From a virus: a stretch of DNA of 64,000 nt. The stretch lies in the IMG/VR virus record IMGVR_UViG_3300017605_000906, positions 5,397 to 69,396 of that record. The stretch is one strand, 5' to 3'. Position numbers and translations under genes: made by a program. This document shows positions 2,957-14,802 of this stretch, one piece after another. Within the stretch, counting starts at the first letter, position 1; every line of letters begins with the position of its first letter. A model generated the notes under the pieces. That model made no database searches and was not told where the DNA came from. It worked only from the letters and a program-made list of their open reading frames with translations.

Positions 2957-3457
2957 TTATTTTGTTTTCAAAGGACGATTGATCGAGCCCGCGAACGATT
3001 CATCTTGGACGATGCGACCGTCATTGAACCCGAACGGTAACCGCATGTTGGGATTTTTTATACCCCAAAGATGATACTGGTTTGCCGCGTCCACTTTGCG
3101 ACTTTCGGCAGGGTAGAGTTCAACTGCTTCACATTCGCGTCCCAGCAGTTGATTCTTGATTTCTTGTAAGTCGCGCCAGTCATGAATCGGCTGGCGGTCG
3201 ATGCGCTTGATGGAGAGGTGATAGAAGTCCTCTCCCTTTTTGTGCATCGACACCTGATAGACGTCATTGCTGTAGACGACTGCATCAGCGTGTATCTCTC
3301 GCACCTTGGTGCGCATCATTATCTCTGCGATGCGAGCGCACGACGCGGGGAACGCAGCGCGCATAGTCTCGTTCCCCTCCTTCCACTTAGCGATGTAGTC
3401 TGCGATGGTGCGCTCCTCCGACTCTCGCGTGATGTGTGTCAGTTCCAGTGGTTGCAT
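2957..3457 (-). CDS. conserved phage protein (DUF7694-like)
   Basis: HLSIKRIDRQPIHDWRDLQEIKN...EAVELYPAES..VD.AN.YHLW signature common in phage proteins. Confidence 0.65.
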   Translation of the reverse strand: MQPLELTHITRESEERTIADYIAKWKEGNETMRAAFPASCARIAEIMMRTKVREIHADAVVYSNDVYQVSMHKKGEDFYHLSIKRIDRQPIHDWRDLQEIKNQLLGRECEAVELYPAESRKVDAANQYHLWGIKNPNMRLPFGFNDGRIVQDESFAGSINRPLKTK

Positions 3458-3459
3458 AA

Positions 3460-3837
3460 CTATTGAATGTTGTTCAACGCATCCACGGCCTCGTCCAACG
3501 CGGTCACCGCATCTTGCAACTTGGTGATTGCCTCGTCCATCTGGGAGACATTCTCCTCCATGGTGGTTCCACGTTCTGCCTGCTGCAAGCTATCGGGCAG
3601 GTTGTCGTGCGCGTCTTGCTCCTCGTCCTTGGGATTTTCCAACTCGTTCGCCAGGTCCTCGATGCGAGACTTCAGTGCATCGACCTTGTTGCGACGCTCG
3701 GCGATGACCGTGGCGTCCGTCGGTGCGCTCGTCTTGGCTTCCTTGACGAACAGTGTGTGAATCGCATCCAGCTCCTTTTTAGCCGTGGTGATTTCTTCGT
3801 TGATACTCTCGATTGTTTTTCGTCGGTCGTTATTCAT
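3460..3837 (-). CDS. coiled-coil hypothetical phage protein
   Basis: MNNDRRK...DEEQDAHDNLPDSLQQAERG, helical and acidic; tiled ORF. Confidence 0.7.
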   Translation of the reverse strand: MNNDRRKTIESINEEITTAKKELDAIHTLFVKEAKTSAPTDATVIAERRNKVDALKSRIEDLANELENPKDEEQDAHDNLPDSLQQAERGTTMEENVSQMDEAITKLQDAVTALDEAVDALNNIQ

Positions 3838-3845
3838 ATTTTTGT

Positions 3846-3883
3846 ATTGTTGATTGTTGATTGTTGATTGTTGATTGTTGATT
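3846..3883. repeat. Tandem repeat (ATTGTTG)x5 in intergenic leader
   Basis: Five perfect 7-mers at 3846-3880 just upstream of the ATG at 3837. Confidence 0.9.
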
Positions 3884-4161
3884 TAGTCGCAGCCGCACCA
3901 GTAGGCCCAGCGGTCGGCGACGCGTGTTACCCAGTTCGTAAACCGAGCGCACTTCTCGCACTTGCCCCGCGCCCCTACCCGGTTGCCGAGGTTCGGCTCC
4001 GTGTAGAACGTGAACCCGTCGGGGCTCGACAGGGTGTGCTCGTGTCGGAATCTTTTATACTGACGCTTGGGCCAGCCGTTGAAGCGATACCAAGACAAGT
4101 TAGGGACGGCCTCTGTGAACGGGACTTCAACCAGTCCATCCTCATTAATGTCGCTATTCAT
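3883..4161 (-). CDS. hypothetical protein with C-terminal Cys cluster
   Basis: CEKC...WCGC; tiled ORF. Confidence 0.6.
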   Translation of the reverse strand: MNSDINEDGLVEVPFTEAVPNLSWYRFNGWPKRQYKRFRHEHTLSSPDGFTFYTEPNLGNRVGARGKCEKCARFTNWVTRVADRWAYWCGCD

Positions 4162-4167
4162 ATTTGG

Positions 4168-5055
4168 TTATTGTTGATTGTTTACCCACCGCTCCTCGAA
4201 CAAGCTAGGCATCTTCAGAGTCTCGCAAAAGACTTCTGTCATGGCAGTGGCTTGCTCTGCTGTAGGCTTCTCGCGACGAATCCAGCGGAAGAAATACCAC
4301 GTCAGGTCTGTCCGTCGTTGGATGCGCTTGAACATCTCCTCATCTGTATTGATGGGATGCGGGAAGTCTTTGTTCTCCGCGTTCATCATCAGGATGGACG
4401 TCTGGCAAGCCATACGCACCTGGCCAATCATCTCGTCTTCATTCCAGCACTCGATGCGCTGCGCGACGACGCCTTCAGATAACTTGCGCAGAGGCATCGT
4501 GTGCTCGACTAGCACGGTCTCTCCCGTCGGGCACCAGATGTCATAGAATGCGCAATCGCAATGGCAGCTGTTCGCTTTCGCCTGTTCCAGGTAGTAATAC
4601 AGGTCATCGCAGACAACGCTCGTCTTGCGCTTGGGAAGAAAAGGCCAGACCAGGTTGATGACATCCTGGGACCTTTCCACGACGATGATTTTTTTGACCT
4701 TAGGCATCTTTTCGAGCAGCGCGACTGCCACACCCAAACCTAAACCTCCCACAAGCACCGTTCCGTGGAAGCCTTTTAGTTGACGAGTGACCTGTTCTAT
4801 CTCTTGAGGCATGGACGTCATCCATGTCCCATAGCCACTCTGTTTCAATCGATGGATGTGGAGTGGCTCGGACAGCACGAGCGTTGTCTGCTTCAATCCC
4901 ATGAATATGGCATTGCGCATACCGACGACAGGGAGCCGTGAGCCCGCGGGCTCTGTGTAGATTTCAACTTGCATTCTCCCCGACTTGCCGATGTGCAATG
5001 GAAAGGGCAGGCTGTAGTTTTTACCGTCACGAACGTATGTAGGAAACGCTTTCAT
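4168..5055 (-). CDS. Class I SAM-dependent transferase (spermidine-synthase-like fold)
   Basis: WMTSMPQE, VLVGGLGLGV (motif I), IIVVERSQDVI, AFYDIW. Confidence 0.75.
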   Translation of the reverse strand: MKAFPTYVRDGKNYSLPFPLHIGKSGRMQVEIYTEPAGSRLPVVGMRNAIFMGLKQTTLVLSEPLHIHRLKQSGYGTWMTSMPQEIEQVTRQLKGFHGTVLVGGLGLGVAVALLEKMPKVKKIIVVERSQDVINLVWPFLPKRKTSVVCDDLYYYLEQAKANSCHCDCAFYDIWCPTGETVLVEHTMPLRKLSEGVVAQRIECWNEDEMIGQVRMACQTSILMMNAENKDFPHPINTDEEMFKRIQRRTDLTWYFFRWIRREKPTAEQATAMTEVFCETLKMPSLFEERWVNNQQ

Positions 5056-5290
5056 TTTTTACCTTTATTGTTTGATTGTTTGATTGTTGGTTGTTAGAGT
5101 TTTGCGAATTGGTCCATGGCGTGAGCCGCCGCTTCAAAACTGTCACAGATGGCATAACAGATGCCATTCGCAGTCATGATGAAGTGAGTGGCCCATGGAT
5201 ACTTTCTTCCATAGTAGCGTCGAGAGACTGGTGACAGTTGGTGCTTCTCGACGATGTGAGGTAGGTTGGAGTGAACGCAGTATAGAATTT

Positions 5291-5878
5291 TCATAGCACC
5301 TCGAAGCCGAGCCTCTTGAGAATCAGTTCCAGCCAATACCTTTTCTTGGCGCGGCTTTTCAACTCCCTCAAGAAGTGCCCATACTCGGCTTTCCAGCAAC
5401 GCTCGGCTTCATTCTCGGAGCTGCCATCGCACAACGCTTCGAGAGCGTGCTGACGAATGTAGCGCAAGTCAATGGCTTCCGGCTGGCGTCCGAAAGTGCC
5501 CGACGACTTGCTGCCCTTTCGCATACTGCGGGAGCCCCACATCACGTGCTCCAGTCCTAGATTGCTGGCGGCGAGATACGCCGCAGCCTCTTCCACGCGC
5601 ACGTGCGTCTTGAGCATGCCCGTTACGTCCTCTGCGAGACTCGGATTCATCGCAGCGAAATTACCTGCGGGTGAAATCGTCGCCGCAAAGTTATCGCGAC
5701 GCATGAGACTACACTCCGCGTGCTCGATGCATTGACGAATCGCCTCGTTGCGAGAGTTTGCGCATCCACTACGCGTGGACCCGAATTCTCCCGCGTCGCG
5801 TGCCGGTGCGCCGACTGACCATGACCATAATTTTTTATCCTTCATATGTATTACCTTTCTTTGTTTGTTTCGATTCAC
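5291..5878 (-). CDS. hypothetical protein
   Basis: ORF tiled in operon; likely start MKDKK at 5845. Confidence 0.55.
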   Translation of the reverse strand: MNRNKQRKVIHMKDKKLWSWSVGAPARDAGEFGSTRSGCANSRNEAIRQCIEHAECSLMRRDNFAATISPAGNFAAMNPSLAEDVTGMLKTHVRVEEAAAYLAASNLGLEHVMWGSRSMRKGSKSSGTFGRQPEAIDLRYIRQHALEALCDGSSENEAERCWKAEYGHFLRELKSRAKKRYWLELILKRLGFEVL

Positions 5879-5887
5879 TCAACTTTA

Positions 5888-6454
5888 TTATTCCGACTTG
5901 CTGCAATCGTAGTCGTGGTCAGCTTTTTCCTCCGCGATACGCTGCTTGCGTTCCAGCGCCGTCTCTGCGTCAGCGACGTAATTAGTGAAGCACTTGTCGC
6001 AACGCTCGTCTTCATCGCCACGCACGTGGTTCCCGGGAAGATGACCTAGCATCAGTTTGCTACCGCACGTTTCGCATCGCTCCTGTGAATGGTGATTCCA
6101 GAATTCCATCGGGGAGGCGAATACGGTTACCTTGTCGACGGGCAACGTGAGCGCTGTAGGGTCCTTGAGCGTCTTGATGACATTCGCTCGATAGATAGCT
6201 GCACCGGCGCAAGCTTGATTCGTGGTGCAGTGGCAGTTGATATACGTCTCGCTATGCGCAAACTGTAGCCACTCTTCAGTGGTGTGGCTCCCGAGCCATC
6301 CGGGAAGCGATGCGCGCGCCCACGGGCAATCTGCGCAGGGCTTGCGATGTTGTTCACGAGTCGGGACGGCGGTGTCGTCTGCGACGAGACGACGAGCCAG
6401 TGGATGTTTATTTTTCATAGGCTTCGGAGTTTGAGTTGCGTATCCATGCCGCAA
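5888..6454 (-). CDS. Cys/His-rich hypothetical phage protein
   Basis: KPCADCPW...GWLG...CHC...CAGA pattern plus CETC/CDKC; likely start MKNKH. Confidence 0.6.
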   Translation of the reverse strand: MRHGYATQTPKPMKNKHPLARRLVADDTAVPTREQHRKPCADCPWARASLPGWLGSHTTEEWLQFAHSETYINCHCTTNQACAGAAIYRANVIKTLKDPTALTLPVDKVTVFASPMEFWNHHSQERCETCGSKLMLGHLPGNHVRGDEDERCDKCFTNYVADAETALERKQRIAEEKADHDYDCSKSE

Positions 6455-8311: not shown

Positions 8312-9832
8312 TTACACGCTGAACTTCCGGCCCGTCGGGGTCGGCGCTGCAGCCTGCTTCTCGTATTCGTAGGTGCCCGGTCGTGAGGCGCTGATGAATC
8401 GACCGCTGGCCTGCATGCGCAAGGCTTCGATTTGGTCCGCTGCACTTTTGCAGACGGGCGTGATATACTTCGCCGCTTCAAAGAGCGGCTTGTTGGTCCG
8501 ATTCGCCACATCGCAGCAGGCGCGAATCTCGGCACCCGTCCAACCCTCGTCGTCGGGCAGCTTCTGCTTGGCGAGCTCATACTTGGCGGTCCAGATGTTC
8601 CAGATGACTGCTCGCTCTTCCGCGTCCGGGAGGTCCACGTAGAACGTCCCGAGTGAGAAGCGACGGCGCAGTTCCGGCGGCAGACTCGCAATCTTGTTAC
8701 AAGTCGCGATGAACAATCCCTTACCCTGACTAACTGCCTTGAACGTGGCCATCGCTTTGCGAATCTTCGCTTGCGATTCACCAACGAGACTTCCCGTCAT
8801 CGCGCCAGTGTCGATAGAGAGCACTTCAGCGCCACTGACTGCGCCCGCGCCCTTGGCGATGGCTGACTTGCCTGTGCCCGGAGGCCCGATAAGAATCAGG
8901 CCCGGGATGTCGTTGTCCTGCATCTCAGTGAGGAACACGCGCAACTGGTCTTGTGATACTCCGCTCAAGTCACCAGACGCACCGGCGAATAGTTTCTCAA
9001 TCTCGTCGATGAATCCGATGCAACGAACGGGGTTGCGTCCCGAGGTCAACAAGTCGGAGAGATATGACTTGATGTTCGCGAGACCACCGATGGTGTCGAA
9101 CGAGCCTTCACCGCGCCAGACGCTCAGACCCGGAGTCTGCTCGACCATCTTGGCTTTACGGGAGAACAGCATTTCTTGATTCACTTCGAGACCGCTGCTG
9201 CCCTTGACGATACTCATCGCGAGGCATTGCTCAGCGGCGAATGCGCTCATACCCAGGAGCGTGTCGACGATTTGCTCCTTGTCGTCCGTCTTGACGCCCG
9301 CCGGCGTCAGAACATTCTCCTCGGCAATCTTGGTGAGCTCGGCGCTATCGGGCAGTGGTTCAGTGACCACCACCACGTCGTGCTGTAATTCGGACGGCAA
9401 CACTAACGCGGGAGCGAGCAGAATCAAATGACTGCCATTCGCCTTCCACGTGTCGCGAAGATTCCAGATGGCTTGCGACACCGTCTCGTTGGTGATGAAC
9501 TTGTGTGCGTTCTTGAAAAAGCACACGCTGTTGCCCGGGGCCTTGTCGTTGAGCAACGAGAGGCATTCGGTCGGGTTGCCCGACTGGATGGGACCATCGG
9601 GAGCGATGTTACGAGCGGCTTGCTGACCTTCCTTATTCAGACCAGACAAACCCTTGACGATGTCCCATTGCATAATGGAATAGGGTTTCTTGTCTGCGGG
9701 AAGTTCCGCAATCGTGTTCTTGATAGTCGCCGCAGGGTCGCACGTTTCGATGCACGCGAGCGGGACGCCAGCGCGACGAATCGCTTTGATGGGATGTTCG
9801 GTGGAGAGTTTCGTGGACGTATTCGTTTTCAT
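8312..9832 (-). CDS. Ycf46-like AAA+ ATPase with swapped Walker A/B order
   Basis: Degenerate N-terminal AAA domain; IGGLANIK, FIDEIEK, GPPGTGKS, SLVGES, IATCN, LPPELRRRF, VDLPDAEER, GWTGAEI. Confidence 0.88.
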   Translation of the reverse strand: MKTNTSTKLSTEHPIKAIRRAGVPLACIETCDPAATIKNTIAELPADKKPYSIMQWDIVKGLSGLNKEGQQAARNIAPDGPIQSGNPTECLSLLNDKAPGNSVCFFKNAHKFITNETVSQAIWNLRDTWKANGSHLILLAPALVLPSELQHDVVVVTEPLPDSAELTKIAEENVLTPAGVKTDDKEQIVDTLLGMSAFAAEQCLAMSIVKGSSGLEVNQEMLFSRKAKMVEQTPGLSVWRGEGSFDTIGGLANIKSYLSDLLTSGRNPVRCIGFIDEIEKLFAGASGDLSGVSQDQLRVFLTEMQDNDIPGLILIGPPGTGKSAIAKGAGAVSGAEVLSIDTGAMTGSLVGESQAKIRKAMATFKAVSQGKGLFIATCNKIASLPPELRRRFSLGTFYVDLPDAEERAVIWNIWTAKYELAKQKLPDDEGWTGAEIRACCDVANRTNKPLFEAAKYITPVCKSAADQIEALRMQASGRFISASRPGTYEYEKQAAAPTPTGRKFSV

Positions 9833-9875
9833 ATTTTTATTTTTTGATTTGTTAAAAGGTTAAAGGTTGATTGGT

Positions 9876-10085
9876 TTATTGATGTTGATGGTCATCGTGA
9901 CTGTGGCCGTGCCCGAACATATGCTGCGACGCGTGCTTCAGTTTGCGTGCGATAGAACCACCGGCGAGTTTGAACATCTCTCGCAAGAAGCCTTCCGCGT
10001 TGACGTGATTGGGGCCACTAATTTTGTCGGTGTCTACTTTGATGGTGCCATCTTCCAAGATGGTCACTTTAATTTTGTCTGCCAT
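9876..10085 (-). CDS. DUF2997-like small protein
   Basis: KIKVTILEDGTIKVDT N-terminus typical of DUF2997; His-rich tail; adjacent to Ycf46-like ATPase. Confidence 0.6.
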   Translation of the reverse strand: MADKIKVTILEDGTIKVDTDKISGPNHVNAEGFLREMFKLAGGSIARKLKHASQHMFGHGHSHDDHQHQ

Positions 10086-10111
10086 ACGATTTGTTTTTCT
10101 TTGGATAATTG

Positions 10112-10387
10112 TTACTCGAAGTTGAACTTGCGAACAGATGTTGCTGCGCCGACAAGCTCAGGTTTAATACTAGCAATCTTGCCACTACCGTCAGTGGCTT
10201 TCACAAACGATGCGTCTTGCTCGGCGACGCCGGCTTCAACCAAGCGAACGTGCTTGCACGTCCGTGCGCCATTCTTACAACGTAGCGTCCAGCCCTTGCA
10301 GTCGCAGGACATTGACCTGTCGTCTTGGACCAAGACTTGATAAAGCCCCGTGCCTTTCGACGAGCGAAAGATGTAGGTGTGTAGCAT
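10112..10387 (-). CDS. SWIM zinc-finger protein
   Basis: SSKGTGLYQV...CDCKGW...TCKH (CxC...CxH). Confidence 0.8.
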   Translation of the reverse strand: MLHTYIFRSSKGTGLYQVLVQDDRSMSCDCKGWTLRCKNGARTCKHVRLVEAGVAEQDASFVKATDGSGKIASIKPELVGAATSVRKFNFE

Positions 10388-10388
10388 A

Positions 10389-10703
10389 TCATCTCCTTAC
10401 AATCTCGTATTCGTATTGCGATGTTTGCTTCACCTGCCAACCGAATCGCTTGGCTTGCGAGAGCACGACTTGCGCGGAATAACCGCGCTTGAACTTTGCG
10501 ACCTTCTCATCGGCTTGCTTTTGATTGAGCCCTGAGAAGGTGAATTCATGCGACGCGCAATGGTAACTGCCACCATTGAACTTGATGATGTCGCCCGTAA
10601 GTTTCGGATTGAGTCCGTCTGCTTCGAGCGCGGCGTTGAGCAAGTTGCGGTCCGTGTTAGCGGAGAATTGCACCTTGGCTTCTTGAACTGTCCAGCATGG
10701 CAT
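10389..10703 (-). CDS. DUF1257/Ycf35-like protein
   Basis: Start MPCW at 10703; LLNAALEADG...KRGYSAQVVLSQAKRFGWQV matches the DUF1257 pattern. Confidence 0.6.
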   Translation of the reverse strand: MPCWTVQEAKVQFSANTDRNLLNAALEADGLNPKLTGDIIKFNGGSYHCASHEFTFSGLNQKQADEKVAKFKRGYSAQVVLSQAKRFGWQVKQTSQYEYEIVRR

Positions 10704-10849
10704 ATTATTATTTACCTTTCTTGTTGAACCAACTTTTGATGTTAAACAGAATGACTGGACCCGTTGCGATAGCGAGCCAGATGAGTGCACGTAACAACGT
10801 GATTTCTTCTGCGTGATGTGGAACACCGGTCATGTGAGCGAACATATAT

Positions 10850-11104
10850 TTAATCTAGGTTGAATTGCCTTACGGCAGGTTGCTGTGGTTTATTGAGACG
10901 TTTATGGAGACGAGTTATTTGTCGTCCGTAGATACCGACTTTGGTATTTGCGAGTTTGAGTTTGCGCAGCCAACGCGAAAGTTGCGCATTGGCCTTGTCG
11001 AGTTTCTCTTGGTCTTTCATGCGATGAAGTAGATGGACGCCCAGACAAGCACGTAGACAATGATTGCGCCGACCTTCATCTTGAAAGATAAGTCCTCGAA
11101 CCAC
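10850..11104 (-). CDS. small basic protein
   Basis: Basic helical ORF, probable start MKDQEK; ends RQFNLD. Confidence 0.5.
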   Translation of the reverse strand: MVRGLIFQDEGRRNHCLRACLGVHLLHRMKDQEKLDKANAQLSRWLRKLKLANTKVGIYGRQITRLHKRLNKPQQPAVRQFNLD

Positions 11105-11134
11105 GCTGCCGTTCTGTCTAGGAGTTGCATGGTT

Positions 11135-11407
11135 TTATCCTTTCACGATACCGACGTTGACGAGCAGCGACTTGATGAACTTGATGCGCCAGAGTCTCTT
11201 CCCGCGAAATTCGAGCACTGCCCGTTTCTCGGCGAGAATCGCCTTCTGCTTGGCGAGACACGGCGCGCAGATGCCGTGACTGACGCCGTAGTAACTGAGC
11301 GACGCGAGCTCAGGGAATGCCGCGAATACTTTGTTGCCCGGGAAGCAGTAGCAGCAGGCGTTGATTTGTTTCGCGTCGTGGTCGATGGTGTATGTGGTCG
11401 ATGTCAT
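11135..11407 (-). CDS. hypothetical protein, first gene of the early operon
   Basis: CCYC...SHGICAPC metal-binding motif; A-rich leader. Confidence 0.6.
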   Translation of the reverse strand: MTSTTYTIDHDAKQINACCYCFPGNKVFAAFPELASLSYYGVSHGICAPCLAKQKAILAEKRAVLEFRGKRLWRIKFIKSLLVNVGIVKG

Positions 11408-11434
11408 ATTTTTTATCTTTCAGGGGGAGTTTAT

Positions 11435-11488
11435 GGTTTCGTCTCGTGACTACCGAGACTCATCAGGTGAGATAAGTTTCTCACTACC
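11435..11488 (-). ncRNA. Hammerhead ribozyme, type III
   Basis: Minus strand: GG-UA^-GUGAGA-AACUUA-UCUCAC-CUGAUGA-GUCUCG-GUAGUCA-CGAGAC-GAAA-CC. All core nucleotides, two perfect 6-bp stems and a 3-bp stem III. Confidence 0.88.
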
Positions 11489-11845
11489 TCTTCAAGGCTG
11501 GACTTCGACTCTCGCCGAATCTCACTCGCGGGATTTCCTTCCGCTCGGTCACCATGAAGTTTTGAAGTTTTCCGGGTCCGTCTTGTCCTCGCTTTCTCGC
11601 TACTCGCGAACCTTCAGCTCAGACTTCGACCTACGCCTTTCGTTTCTTCGCCTACGAGCTGGCCGCTTTCGCGTTGCTCTCGCAGGTTGCCCGGAGGTTA
11701 TTCCGGGAGTTTGTTTCCGCTGTCGTGTGGTCTCGCTAATCTCGTTGACTTTGCTAGGACGAGCCACTCAGCGCTGGGGGTTTCGGACTTCCAGCTTGTC
11801 CCATCGTTTTGTTTCGCGGATACGACTCGAACCGCCTCGCACGTA

Positions 11846-11911
11846 AATATAGTAATCCACGTTGAGCAAGTGTCTAGCGAATATGAAAAAGATTTATTCT
11901 CCATATTCGCT
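11846..11911 (-). promoter_or_regulatory. Putative host sigma70-type promoter with adjacent 10-bp inverted repeat
   Basis: TAGACA (11876-11871)-N16-TACTAT (11854-11849); AGCGAATATG 11876-11885 / CATATTCGCT 11902-11911. Confidence 0.45.
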
Positions 11912-12010
11912 TCTACATCAATGGGTTAGGACTGTAAACTAATGAGACACGAAAAGCATTTTCGAGAAAATCAGTGGAATACAACGAAATCCGCGTGATT
12001 CGCAAACGGT

Positions 12011-12018
12011 AGATAATA
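12011..12018 (+). promoter_or_regulatory. AGATAATA motif (one of 11 gene-oriented copies)
   Basis: 4 nt upstream of GTG start 12023; other copies listed in findings. Confidence 0.6.
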
Positions 12019-12022
12019 GAGC

Positions 12023-12910
12023 GTGCGCATAAAGAGTATTCGAGTCATCAACTTTCAACGCCATCGACGACTCGTCATTCATCTCGACGATGTGACGGTG
12101 ATTCGTGGCGAGACAGATGCAGGAAAATCTGCAGTGCTGCGTGCGTTGCGTTGGCTGTGCTTGAATGATTTTGCGGGCGCCAACTTCATTCGTCGTGGAG
12201 CGAAACGTGCTGCGGTATCCGTTCGCATAATTCACAACAAGCAGCTCCACGAAATCACACGCGAGCGCAGTGCCAGTAACACGTATCGACTCGATGGCGA
12301 AATCTACAAAGCATTTGGCGCGAACGTCCCCGACAACATCGCCAACCTGCTGCGATTATCCGACGTCAACTTTGCCAGTCAACACGATGGTCCTTTTTGG
12401 TTCTGCGAAACTGCGCCCGAGGTATCGCGCAAGTTAAATGCCATTGTGGATTTGTCCGTCATTGATTCATCGCTATCGCATGTGGCCAAAGTGGTCACGA
12501 CGACAAACACTGAACTTGTCGTTCACGAATCCAGGCTGGAGTCCATCCGAGAGGACTTGAAGACCACGCAGCCCGAGCGCATAAAGGCGTTCGACTTGCT
12601 CCACGAGATTCATCGAGATGAACGGGCAGTCTCACGCCGTATCGTTCGCTTGAAAGAATTGATTGAGGCGTCAGCTCGTCTCGAATCGCAAACGAACACC
12701 ATCCCTTCATTCTCCGAAATCGAGATGCACTACAAGAAGTTAGTTTCCATCCAACAAAAGGTGGATAGCTTACAGCTCATCGTGAAACGGATTCGAGAAG
12801 CACAACAGAATGTCGACACTGCTCAAAAGCGAGCAGTCCAAGCCGAACGAGAATTCAAACAACAAACCCAAGGTAAGCCATGTCCAATATGCGGAAGTCC
12901 GATGAAGTAA
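12023..12910 (+). CDS. sbcC: SbcC/Rad50-like ATPase, N-terminal half
   Basis: IKSIRVINFQRH, Walker A GETDAGKS, Q-loop FASQHD, coiled coil, terminal CPIC zinc hook. Confidence 0.85.
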   Translation: MRIKSIRVINFQRHRRLVIHLDDVTVIRGETDAGKSAVLRALRWLCLNDFAGANFIRRGAKRAAVSVRIIHNKQLHEITRERSASNTYRLDGEIYKAFGANVPDNIANLLRLSDVNFASQHDGPFWFCETAPEVSRKLNAIVDLSVIDSSLSHVAKVVTTTNTELVVHESRLESIREDLKTTQPERIKAFDLLHEIHRDERAVSRRIVRLKELIEASARLESQTNTIPSFSEIEMHYKKLVSIQQKVDSLQLIVKRIREAQQNVDTAQKRAVQAEREFKQQTQGKPCPICGSPMK

Positions 12911-13770
12911 TCGCTGTGCTGGTCGCAGACTTGCATCTAAGTCTTACAGCTCCCGCTTGTCGCGCTGATAAGAACTGGATGGACGTTCAGGCTGACTATC
13001 TACATCAGCTGCGCCGCGTCGCTCGTAAAGTCCCCGTGCTCTGCGCGGGCGACATCTTCGACCGTTGGAACGCCGCCCCCGAGTTGATTCACCTCGCCTT
13101 GAAGCATCTCCCCGATGGAATGATTTGCGTTCCCGGACAGCACGACCTACCCAACCATCGCATGGATGATATGCATCGCAGTGGTTATGGAGTGCTCCGC
13201 GAAGCGGGGAAGATTCGACACATCTCAGGCTCGTCCATTCCAATCGAGCATGGTTGGACGGTGGATGGATATGGATGGAATGAGCCACTCAAGCCTGCCC
13301 GAACGGTAAAACGAATTGCGCTGGTGCATCATTATTGTTGGATTCCCGGTAAAGGATATCCCGGTGCGTCCGAATCGAGTCGTCTTGCTGCGCTGCTCAT
13401 CAAGCTGCGCAATTATGACCTGCGAGTATTCGGGGACAACCACATTCCCTTCTCGCGTCCGTCTGTTCATAACTGCGGCACGTTCATTCGTCGCAAGTCA
13501 GATGAGCTGCACCATCACCCTTCGCTGGGACTGCTCTTGAGCGATGGTCAGGTGAAGCGATACCCGTTGGACGTATCGAAAGACCTGTTTCATCAGAACG
13601 CAAAGCAGCGGGAGGAGTCGCAGCTCGACCTTAGTTCATTCATGGAGGAGCTGGAGGAACTAGGCGAGCAAGCCACCGACTTCAAGGCGACTGTCAAAAA
13701 TTACCTTCGTGACGCTCGACTCGATGACCCAATCAAGCAGATAATAAGAACAGCGGTCTATGAAAACTGA
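12880..13770 (+). CDS. sbcD: SbcD/Mre11-like metallophosphoesterase nuclease
   Basis: ADLH, AGDIFD, PGQHD, VHH, GDNHIP, NCG motifs. Confidence 0.88.
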   Translation: MSNMRKSDEVIAVLVADLHLSLTAPACRADKNWMDVQADYLHQLRRVARKVPVLCAGDIFDRWNAAPELIHLALKHLPDGMICVPGQHDLPNHRMDDMHRSGYGVLREAGKIRHISGSSIPIEHGWTVDGYGWNEPLKPARTVKRIALVHHYCWIPGKGYPGASESSRLAALLIKLRNYDLRVFGDNHIPFSRPSVHNCGTFIRRKSDELHHHPSLGLLLSDGQVKRYPLDVSKDLFHQNAKQREESQLDLSSFMEELEELGEQATDFKATVKNYLRDARLDDPIKQIIRTAVYEN

Positions 13771-13773
13771 ATT

Positions 13774-14025
13774 ATGAATCTCAAACCTACACACCATGCA
13801 TTGTTCGCCAGCCAGTTTGAAGTTACTGCGTGGCAATTCACCTTCAGTGCGCCGCTGCCCAAATGGATGGCTACAATCTTTTCAGAGAATGGGACACATT
13901 GGGTAGCACGCTCCAAGAGTGATGAAGTGGTCTATGCCAATGTCACAGATTGGGCCGTCGTCGTTGAAAAGAGCGTCGTGGTCCTTACGCACCCTGAATT
14001 CAATTTGCTTTTCAAACCATTATGA
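13774..14025 (+). CDS. hypothetical protein
   Basis: 83 aa tiled ORF, ATGA overlap with next gene. Confidence 0.55.
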   Translation: MNLKPTHHALFASQFEVTAWQFTFSAPLPKWMATIFSENGTHWVARSKSDEVVYANVTDWAVVVEKSVVVLTHPEFNLLFKPL

Positions 14026-14255
14026 CAGAGGAAGCATTCACAGAACTGAAAGAGGAGCACGAGCAATGCGCCAGGGTAGTCGAGCGTGCGCGTGGAGCCC
14101 TTCAACAACTGGAGCGTCAGTTGCGCAAAGAGTTTGGCTGCGATGTTCGTGGCGCCCGCAAGCTGCTCGCCAAACTGGAGACTCAGCAAACCGAAATCCA
14201 AGAAGCCCTGCAACGGGCCACCAAAGCATATGTTCGATTACGAGAGCGAGAGTGA
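14022..14255 (+). CDS. small coiled-coil protein (SbcC-associated)
   Basis: 77 aa heptad-rich ORF between the Rad50 halves. Confidence 0.6.
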   Translation: MTEEAFTELKEEHEQCARVVERARGALQQLERQLRKEFGCDVRGARKLLAKLETQQTEIQEALQRATKAYVRLRERE

Positions 14256-14802
14256 ACTCATCCAGGGTCTGCGTGAGCGCAGAAAGGCATTGAAGCTATC
14301 GTTGAAACGAGAGCGAGACTCATTGGAGCAAACCAAAATCAAATTGGAGCACGCTCGAAAAGCGCAAGAGGTGCTCCAGTCGCTCGCCCAATCGGTCCAA
14401 CAAAAAGCACACGAACGAATCGCCCGCGTGGTTACGACTTGCTTGCAGACTGTATTCCCCGATGACCCATATGAGTTTCAAATTCGATTCGAGCGCAAGC
14501 GCGGGCGCACAGAGGCACGCCTAATCTTCGTGCGCGATGGATTGGAAGTCAGTCCTTTGTCGGCTAGTGGAGGAGGCGTCGTCGATGTGGCTGCGTTCGC
14601 ATTGCGCGTGGCGTGTCTTTCTCTTCATCGTCCTCGACTCAGCCGACTGCTCGTGCTTGATGAACCATTTCGATTCGTCTCCGCGCAACACCACGATGCC
14701 ATTCGCATCATGCTCAAGACATTGGCAAAAGAAATGGGCATTCAGATTGTGATGGTGACTCACAACGCGAACCTCGTCACGGGAAAAGTGATTGAGGTTT
14801 GA
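14230..14802 (+). CDS. sbcC: SbcC/Rad50-like ATPase, C-terminal half
   Basis: Likely start MFDY at 14230; signature LSASGGG, Walker B LVLDEP, H-loop MVTH. Confidence 0.85.
   Translation: MFDYESESELIQGLRERRKALKLSLKRERDSLEQTKIKLEHARKAQEVLQSLAQSVQQKAHERIARVVTTCLQTVFPDDPYEFQIRFERKRGRTEARLIFVRDGLEVSPLSASGGGVVDVAAFALRVACLSLHRPRLSRLLVLDEPFRFVSAQHHDAIRIMLKTLAKEMGIQIVMVTHNANLVTGKVIEV

Follow-up and report, generated by a model that had tools for sequence, protein, structure and literature searches.

The 64,000-nt stretch of DNA analysed here, which we call the window (bases 5397-69396 of an IMG/VR virus record of 69,396 bp with an estimated completeness of 93%), carries a complete 54-nt type III hammerhead motif on its minus strand at 11435-11488, recognized by direct reading as well as by the Rfam model RF00008. 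The motif is real and, judging from its sequence, very probably a true hammerhead. Its site is a region free of genes just ahead of the first gene of a block of non-structural genes. On balance, we favour the reading that a genuine type III hammerhead is transcribed here within a long 5' leader and would cleave itself to trim that leader.

A complete type III hammerhead motif

Read in the 5' to 3' direction of the minus strand, the motif begins with the 5' strand of stem III, GGU (11488-11486), followed by A17 at 11485, and the scissile bond is predicted between 11485 and 11484. Stem I comes next with 6 bp and a 6-nt loop (GUGAGA 11484-11479, loop AACUUA 11478-11473, UCUCAC 11472-11467), then the core strand CUGAUGA (C3-A9, 11466-11460), which matches the Rfam consensus exactly, and stem II with 6 bp and a 7-nt loop (GUCUCG 11459-11454, loop GUAGUCA 11453-11447, CGAGAC 11446-11441). 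The motif ends with GAAA (G12-A15.1, 11440-11437) and CC (11436-11435), the 3' strand of stem III, which pairs with the GGU strand to give 3 bp only. The conserved hammerhead core is thus present in CUGAUGA, GAAA, U16.1 at 11486, and A17, where an H and not a G is expected, and three helices of 6, 6, and 3 bp (stems I, II, and III) surround this core. The pairs adjacent to the core, G1.1-C2.1, G10.1-C11.1, and A15.1-U16.1, are all standard, a criterion that Perreault et al. set for candidates (PMC3088659). The order of the elements defines the topology as type III, with a loop on each of stems I and II and stem III as the open helix.

The original prediction had described a complete type III hammerhead core on the minus strand at 11488-11435 and cleavage between 11485 and 11484, and direct reading found every element at these positions. 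The length of 77 nt that it gave for the remaining leader is likewise correct, as this leader would run from 11484 to 11408, directly before the ATG at 11407.

In its core (CUGAUGA, GAAA, A15.1-U16.1, and A as H17), the motif agrees with known type III hammerheads (RF00008, clan CL00010; de la Pena et al., 2017, PMC6155905; Perreault et al., 2011, PMC3088659), with which it also shares the looped stems I and II, the open stem III, and an intergenic position in a phage. It differs from the RF00008 model in the length of stem III, which has 3 bp here and 7 in the model, and in its loops, which are unlike those of the plant satellites.

The 7-mer AGUGAGA, consisting of A17 and the 5' strand of stem I, recurs on the minus strand at 11520-11526, 35 nt upstream of the ribozyme. 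This copy is in a CGA context and is not cleavable; going by its sequence, it could pair with the 3' strand of stem I as a decoy.

Chance occurrence and Rfam scores

The CUGANGA-hairpin-GAAA core occurs once in the whole 69,396-bp record. A strict scan for UH, CUGANGA, and GAAA together with perfect hairpins for stems I and II and an uninterrupted stem III yielded a single hit in the window, the motif itself with its stems of 6, 6, and 3 bp. When 813 equally long sequences generated by an order-1 Markov model of the window were scanned, there were 0.10 hits per sequence when stems of at least 3/3/1 bp were allowed, and none at all at 4/4/3 bp or more. A 6/6/3 match is expected near 4e-5 times per window, a figure extrapolated at about 6/16 per further pair and not measured. 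The bare pattern GGTAG-N14-20-CCTGATGAG-N15-23-CGAAACC had 10 matches in 596 Gb of genomes, all 10 with "stems" of merely 1-3 pairs. A chance origin of the motif is excluded.

RF00008 aligns to the motif over its full length (model positions 1-54) with 23.9 bits and E-values of 0.017 (for 901 nt) and 3.2e-4 (for the genome). The original prediction had proposed a check with the Rfam hammerhead models; the alignment runs end to end, but the score stays below the formal gathering threshold of 48.5 bits, although sequence and topology agree with the definition of a hammerhead. An Rfam scan of the window at gathering scores accordingly gave no match, and the motif surfaces in E-value mode only, as 23.9 bits lie under the cut-off of the default scan. 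The loss in score is mainly due to stem III, in which only 3 of the model's 7 pairs are formed. Plausible phage hammerheads with a short stem III escape the Rfam type III model at its gathering score, as seen for the window motif and a second one of 33.6 bits that is described below.

Folding of the ribozyme RNA

The minimum free energy (MFE) structure of a 66-nt stretch is the three-way junction, at -17.4 kcal/mol and with a z-score of only -2.0. In five sequence contexts of 54 to 543 nt, the lowest pair probability was 0.81-0.87 in stem I, which is present in the MFE folds, and 0.90-0.98 in stem II. The pair probability of stem III by nearest-neighbour folding was 0.01-0.23 in the same five contexts. 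The MFE fold of a 161-nt context, like the folds of growing transcripts, contains a competing mini-hairpin of 5 pairs (GCCUU-GAA-GAGGU, minus strand, 11498-11486); this hairpin ties up the 5' strand of stem III and is made before the 3' strand of that stem. The fold constrained to the hammerhead lies 0-1.9 kcal/mol above the MFE. The 3-bp stem III had been named as a caveat at the outset, and this caveat is real and, with the low probability and the competing hairpin, slightly worse than assumed. As nearest-neighbour models ignore the tertiary structure of the core, the low probability of stem III marks a weak point and not inactivity.

Fast cleavage at cellular Mg2+ needs a tertiary contact between stems I and II (PMC6155905). 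Pairing between loop I and loop II amounts to at most 3 bp and -0.4 kcal/mol, as chance would often give, and does not count as evidence of such a contact.

Position at the head of a non-structural gene block

PHROG and Pfam matches to the window ORFs characterize the virus as a tailed phage. The large terminase is encoded on the minus strand at 49801-48236, as are the tape measure and tail proteins from 27219 to 15433, whereas a short group of SbcC-like and SbcD-like genes is on the plus strand at 12023-14802. The SbcC-like ATPase is seemingly split into an N-terminal ORF (12023-12910) and a C-terminal ATPase ORF (14086-14802), between which the SbcD-like phosphoesterase ORF is located (12880-13770, all on the plus strand). 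From 11407 down to the start of the window, the minus strand encodes a non-structural block of small ORFans, an AAA ATPase (9832-8312), a methyltransferase-like protein, and a helicase.

The ribozyme is situated between the divergent starts at 11407 (minus) and 12023 (plus), which are separated by 615 nt devoid of credible genes. Six ORFs overlap this region, and all six are mechanical ORFs unlike protein that match neither Pfam nor PHROG; as real genes they were rejected. Given the plus-strand start of the SbcC-like gene at 12023 and the start of the minus-strand block at 11407, the promoter of the block must lie upstream of the ribozyme. The original prediction had placed the motif in the leader of the early operon. 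The leader position agrees with what we found and can be specified as a gene-free divergent region at the head of the minus-strand non-structural block, while "early" is a candidate label only.

The first ORF of the block (11135-11407, minus) encodes a cysteine-rich ORFan of 90 aa that matched neither Pfam nor PHROG, had no relative in IMG/VR, and found only itself among 5.8 billion proteins. For gene 3, the relatives indicate a protein of 104 aa (10389-10703, minus) and not the 145-aa mechanical ORF (10389-10826). The family to which it belongs occurs on viral contigs from soil and freshwater; it lacks a Pfam domain, and its C-terminal block KRFGWQVK is invariant.

Between the ribozyme and the first ATG lies an A-rich spacer of 27 nt (11408-11434, minus) that has no Shine-Dalgarno-like word. 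Across the window, a Shine-Dalgarno-like 4-mer precedes just 8 of 56 mechanically chosen starts, and many starts are preceded by A-rich sequence or AGATAATA-like words, which suggests a host with Shine-Dalgarno-poor translation initiation.

Upstream of the ribozyme, a purine-rich leader with no credible ORF extends over 11489-11842 on the minus strand, with a predicted 5' end, and this part would be detached upon cleavage. The prediction of its 5' end goes back to a promoter-like site, TAGACA-16-TACTAT (11876-11849, minus), that matches the consensus weakly; sites of this kind were found twice, with 1.4 expected. The length of about 350 nt originally proposed for the upstream RNA hinges on this consensus match and thus has to be read as a prediction as well. 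An inverted repeat of 15 nt with 87% complementarity and a 6-nt spacer (11876-11911) overlaps the first hexamer of the promoter-like site and may be an operator. A search of sequencing runs for the stretch found no RNA run among those containing it.

Proposed mechanism of leader trimming

The ribozyme is in sense to the downstream genes, and its orientation and position would fit a transcribed leader. We infer transcription through the motif, cleavage, and an effect on mRNA stability or translation. Transcription would start somewhere in 11489-12022, with the site at 11876-11849 as a weak candidate promoter. As soon as the 3' strand of stem III is made, the three-way junction would fold, and the RNA would cut itself after A17. 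The upstream leader (about 358 nt with the predicted promoter) would be released with a 2',3'-cyclic phosphate, and since it is held by 3 base pairs only, it should dissociate and not be re-ligated. The mRNA would keep the ribozyme, so that a 5'-OH would be positioned right at the stem I hairpin, and after the ribozyme the unstructured A-rich spacer would lead to the start codon. The outcome would be a defined, short, hairpin-capped 5' UTR and thus a natural counterpart of RiboJ. 5'-end-dependent RNases gain poor access to an RNA that begins with a 5'-OH and a hairpin, and the removal of a leader makes the UTR independent of the upstream sequence. As Shine-Dalgarno words are few and A-rich starts are common in this phage, the free unstructured spacer may matter for translation in the host.

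RiboJ is derived from a type III satellite hammerhead to which a hairpin was added. Like the window ribozyme in the mechanism proposed here, it is self-cleaving, is placed between promoter and RBS, cuts off the leader, and stays on the 5' end of the mRNA, and in E. coli it is reported to have increased the abundance of the transcript about 2-fold and that of the protein 2-10-fold (PMC6206723). RiboJ is engineered, and the likeness is functional only.

As a single canonical copy with a promoter region on one side and the first gene of the block on the other, the motif makes a clean test case for whether such ribozymes trim leaders and set mRNA 5' ends. Taken alone, it is one more example of a known element and holds no new principle.

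Relatives of the phage and alternative readings

A GenBank phage search with 10800-12300 gave no match, and relatives found through individual genes had no hammerhead. For the SbcC-like gene, there were 4 loci at 26-37% identity, none with a hammerhead, and for the AAA ATPase, there was one locus at 56% identity, in which 5.2 kb upstream contained no CUGANGA. The gene 3 search yielded 10 proteins, the closest of which (P0003) was 76% identical, and an alignment of these 10 led to 25 loci, none with a hammerhead core; the closest of these loci (70% and 62% identity) are only about 1.2 kb long and may not reach the ribozyme site, and the contig of P0003 was left out. In total, all 30 related loci (L002-L006 and L015-L039) were without a hammerhead. 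The large terminase led to 50 loci with a best identity of 52%. RF00008 detected nothing in 8 related whole records, 3 of which were searched at E <= 10 and 5, taken from the 50 terminase relatives, at E <= 1. As no diverged homologue was found, the helices have no support from covariation.

The one close relative was present in a sequencing run (X1, DNA contigs labelled soil metagenome), in which eight short pieces matched 9800-12800 with roughly 88-98% identity; these contigs are short, have about 3x depth, and leave parts of the stretch without cover. Two further runs (X2 and X3) contained nothing useful on the stretch. A 181-nt piece from X1 covers 11425-11559, with indels at 11509-11515 and two substitutions. 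No difference is listed inside 11435-11488, but as the output does not place the two substitutions, the identity of the ribozyme in this relative is uncertain. Below 11425, the piece continues for 48 nt that are unlike the window, and the match of another piece to the 3' half of the first ORF breaks off above 11278. Going by these breaks in similarity, the ribozyme would keep with the upstream region, with the end of the leader and the first gene's 5' half exchanged, which we take only as a hint at a linkage of the ribozyme with its upstream region.

Besides counting for the reading that we favour, this linkage speaks for a rather unlikely one, according to which the job of the ribozyme is to make the 3' end of a discrete, purine-rich non-coding RNA of about 358 nt that would carry a 2',3'-cyclic phosphate, and any effect on the mRNA is secondary. 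In X1, not only is the downstream sequence exchanged, but the upstream pieces are also about 98% identical (two substitutions each over 135 and 157 nt), as compared to 88-97% in the five pieces from the coding part. The long gene-free stretch, with several short hairpins and two imperfect direct repeats of 16-19 nt, would also suit an RNA with a function of its own. However, the identity figures come from short contigs of about 3x depth. The fold of the leader is no steadier than that of shuffled sequences (z-score -1.23, with 11 of 100 shuffles as stable), and in Rfam the leader matched no family, with IMES-2 as the best hit at an E-value of 2.5, so that a known or strongly structured RNA is unsupported. 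A second copy of the leader elsewhere in the genome was not found either, and the GenBank phage search provided no homologue.

It is unlikely that the motif is an inactive or decaying hammerhead-like sequence, for instance a remnant of recombination, that has no present function. Such a remnant would be in line with the patchy occurrence as a singleton that is missing from the 8 related records and the 30 related loci, with the sub-threshold Rfam score, and with the 3 bp of stem III; moreover, some consensus-like candidates proved inactive in the study of Perreault et al. (PMC3088659). Yet the core and both 6-bp helices, where decay would be expected first, show zero deviations, and the X1 relative has no listed difference in the ribozyme although nearby coding sequence differs by 3-12%. 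The orientation and position, which suit a transcribed leader, also argue against a remnant.

Quite improbable, in our view, is a conditional switch in which most transcripts stay uncut and cleavage is set by Mg2+, temperature, or a bound factor, which would tune the expression of the block. The weak stem III, an active fold that lies up to 1.9 kcal/mol above the MFE, and a competing hairpin that is transcribed ahead of the 3' strand of stem III would all allow such control, and for phage hammerheads that are slow, Perreault et al. bring up the idea that cleavage is regulated (PMC3088659). An energy difference of about 1 kcal/mol, however, is no larger than the error of a model that ignores the core tertiary structure, no element for binding a ligand or protein was identified, and comparative support is missing.

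Production of an RNA 3' end and conditional cleavage can both coexist with the trimming of the leader that we favour. We regard it as improbable, though conceivable, that all of these are combined, with one promoter giving rise to two functional RNAs, the RNA of about 358 nt and a ribozyme-capped early mRNA with a 5'-OH, and with a conditional split between them through the weak stem III and the competing hairpin, so that cleavage would act as a timing or dosage switch when infection begins and the whole would be a portable unit. The downstream break in X1 hints at such portability, in that a unit of promoter, leader, and ribozyme could be placed before different first genes.

Finally, one ribozyme acting on many remote substrate sites was considered and rejected, as no substrate halves are repeated ahead of the downstream genes (GGTAGTGAGA with up to one mismatch had 3 matches versus 2.26 expected, none inside the block, and the sole match to GTHGTGAGA was the ribozyme itself), and the loop closing stem I counts against it as well.

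Comparison with published hammerheads

Bacteria are known to carry hammerheads of types I, II, and III, often within prophages (Perreault et al., 2011, PMC3088659), and two reviews describe the biological role of the bacterial and phage hammerheads as open (PMC6765202; PMC6155905). In the literature that we searched, no paper tested the function of such a leader hammerhead in a bacteriophage.

A hammerhead ahead of the first early gene is already in print. In the haloviruses HF1 and HF2, Perreault et al. describe a hammerhead (HHphage) that precedes the opening ORF of a polycistronic early transcript by 13 nt, with a 5' end mapped to within 3 nt of the cleavage site (PMC3088659). The window ribozyme is likewise just ahead of the first ORF of a polycistronic, non-structural part of a tailed virus, at 27 instead of 13 nt. 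In the same study, HHphage has an atypical core with insertions, needs high salt, and has its 5' end mapped in vivo, whereas the ribozyme described here has a canonical core and is known from sequence alone. The host of the HHphage viruses is an archaeon. The clustered prophage hammerheads that flank single genes (PMC3088659) resemble the window ribozyme in their proposed role, the processing of phage transcripts, but the window ribozyme is a single copy ahead of a first gene and not between cistrons.

Other hammerheads in IMG/VR

A looser pattern, GTAG-...-CCTGATGAG-...-CGAAAC, had 57 matches in IMG/VR, 41 of them with both helices. All but one of these 41 belong to a single type III family (L051-L104) on contigs of mostly 150-400 kb, with a GUA site and stems I, II, and III of 6, 4, and 12-13 bp, and its members are near-identical across the contigs. 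Type III hammerheads are thus not rare in phages. From the 16 matches without both helices, 8 were folded, and five of these look like type I hammerheads caught by a chance GTAG; L061, going by its fold, is possibly a type III example whose stem I is imperfect.

The one remaining helix-bearing match, L040, is the nearest analogue of the window ribozyme and is on an unrelated 65.9-kb IMG/VR phage that shares no tblastx match at 1e-4 with the window phage. Its type III hammerhead (L040:2079-2137) has a GUA site and stems I, II, and III of 6-7, 4, and 4 bp, and its 33.6 bits are likewise below the RF00008 gathering threshold. The layout known from a halovirus is seen again in this phage, in which a promoter-like site (TTGACA-16-GATAAT) is followed by about 80 nt, the hammerhead, 15 nt, and the AAGGAG-ATG of the first small ORF. 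The order is the same as in the window, with a promoter-like site, a leader, a type III hammerhead with GUA and a short stem III, a spacer, and small ORFs. L040 differs from the window in its stems, in having a Shine-Dalgarno sequence, in its leader, which is only about 80 nt long, and in a second hammerhead motif, type II-like with an open 4-bp stem II, just before the RBS of gene 2 (L040:2342-2396). A search with RF02276 did not detect this second motif, though it folds as type II-like; it contains TTGACA and TATACT hexamers at a distance of 18 nt.

The pattern with the window ribozyme's own stem II led to 7 IMG/VR loci, in which a scripted check found no type III arrangement with a stem III of at least 2 bp. 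Of these loci (L007-L013), the six from L007 to L012 were rejected as relatives, as their sequences read as unrelated type I hammerheads. L007 is a viral contig with a high GC content and a length of 6.6 kb; there are eight type I cores within 2990-6410, just one of which reaches the RF00163 gathering score; the cores are about 340-690 nt apart, and each is located a few bases past a stop codon.
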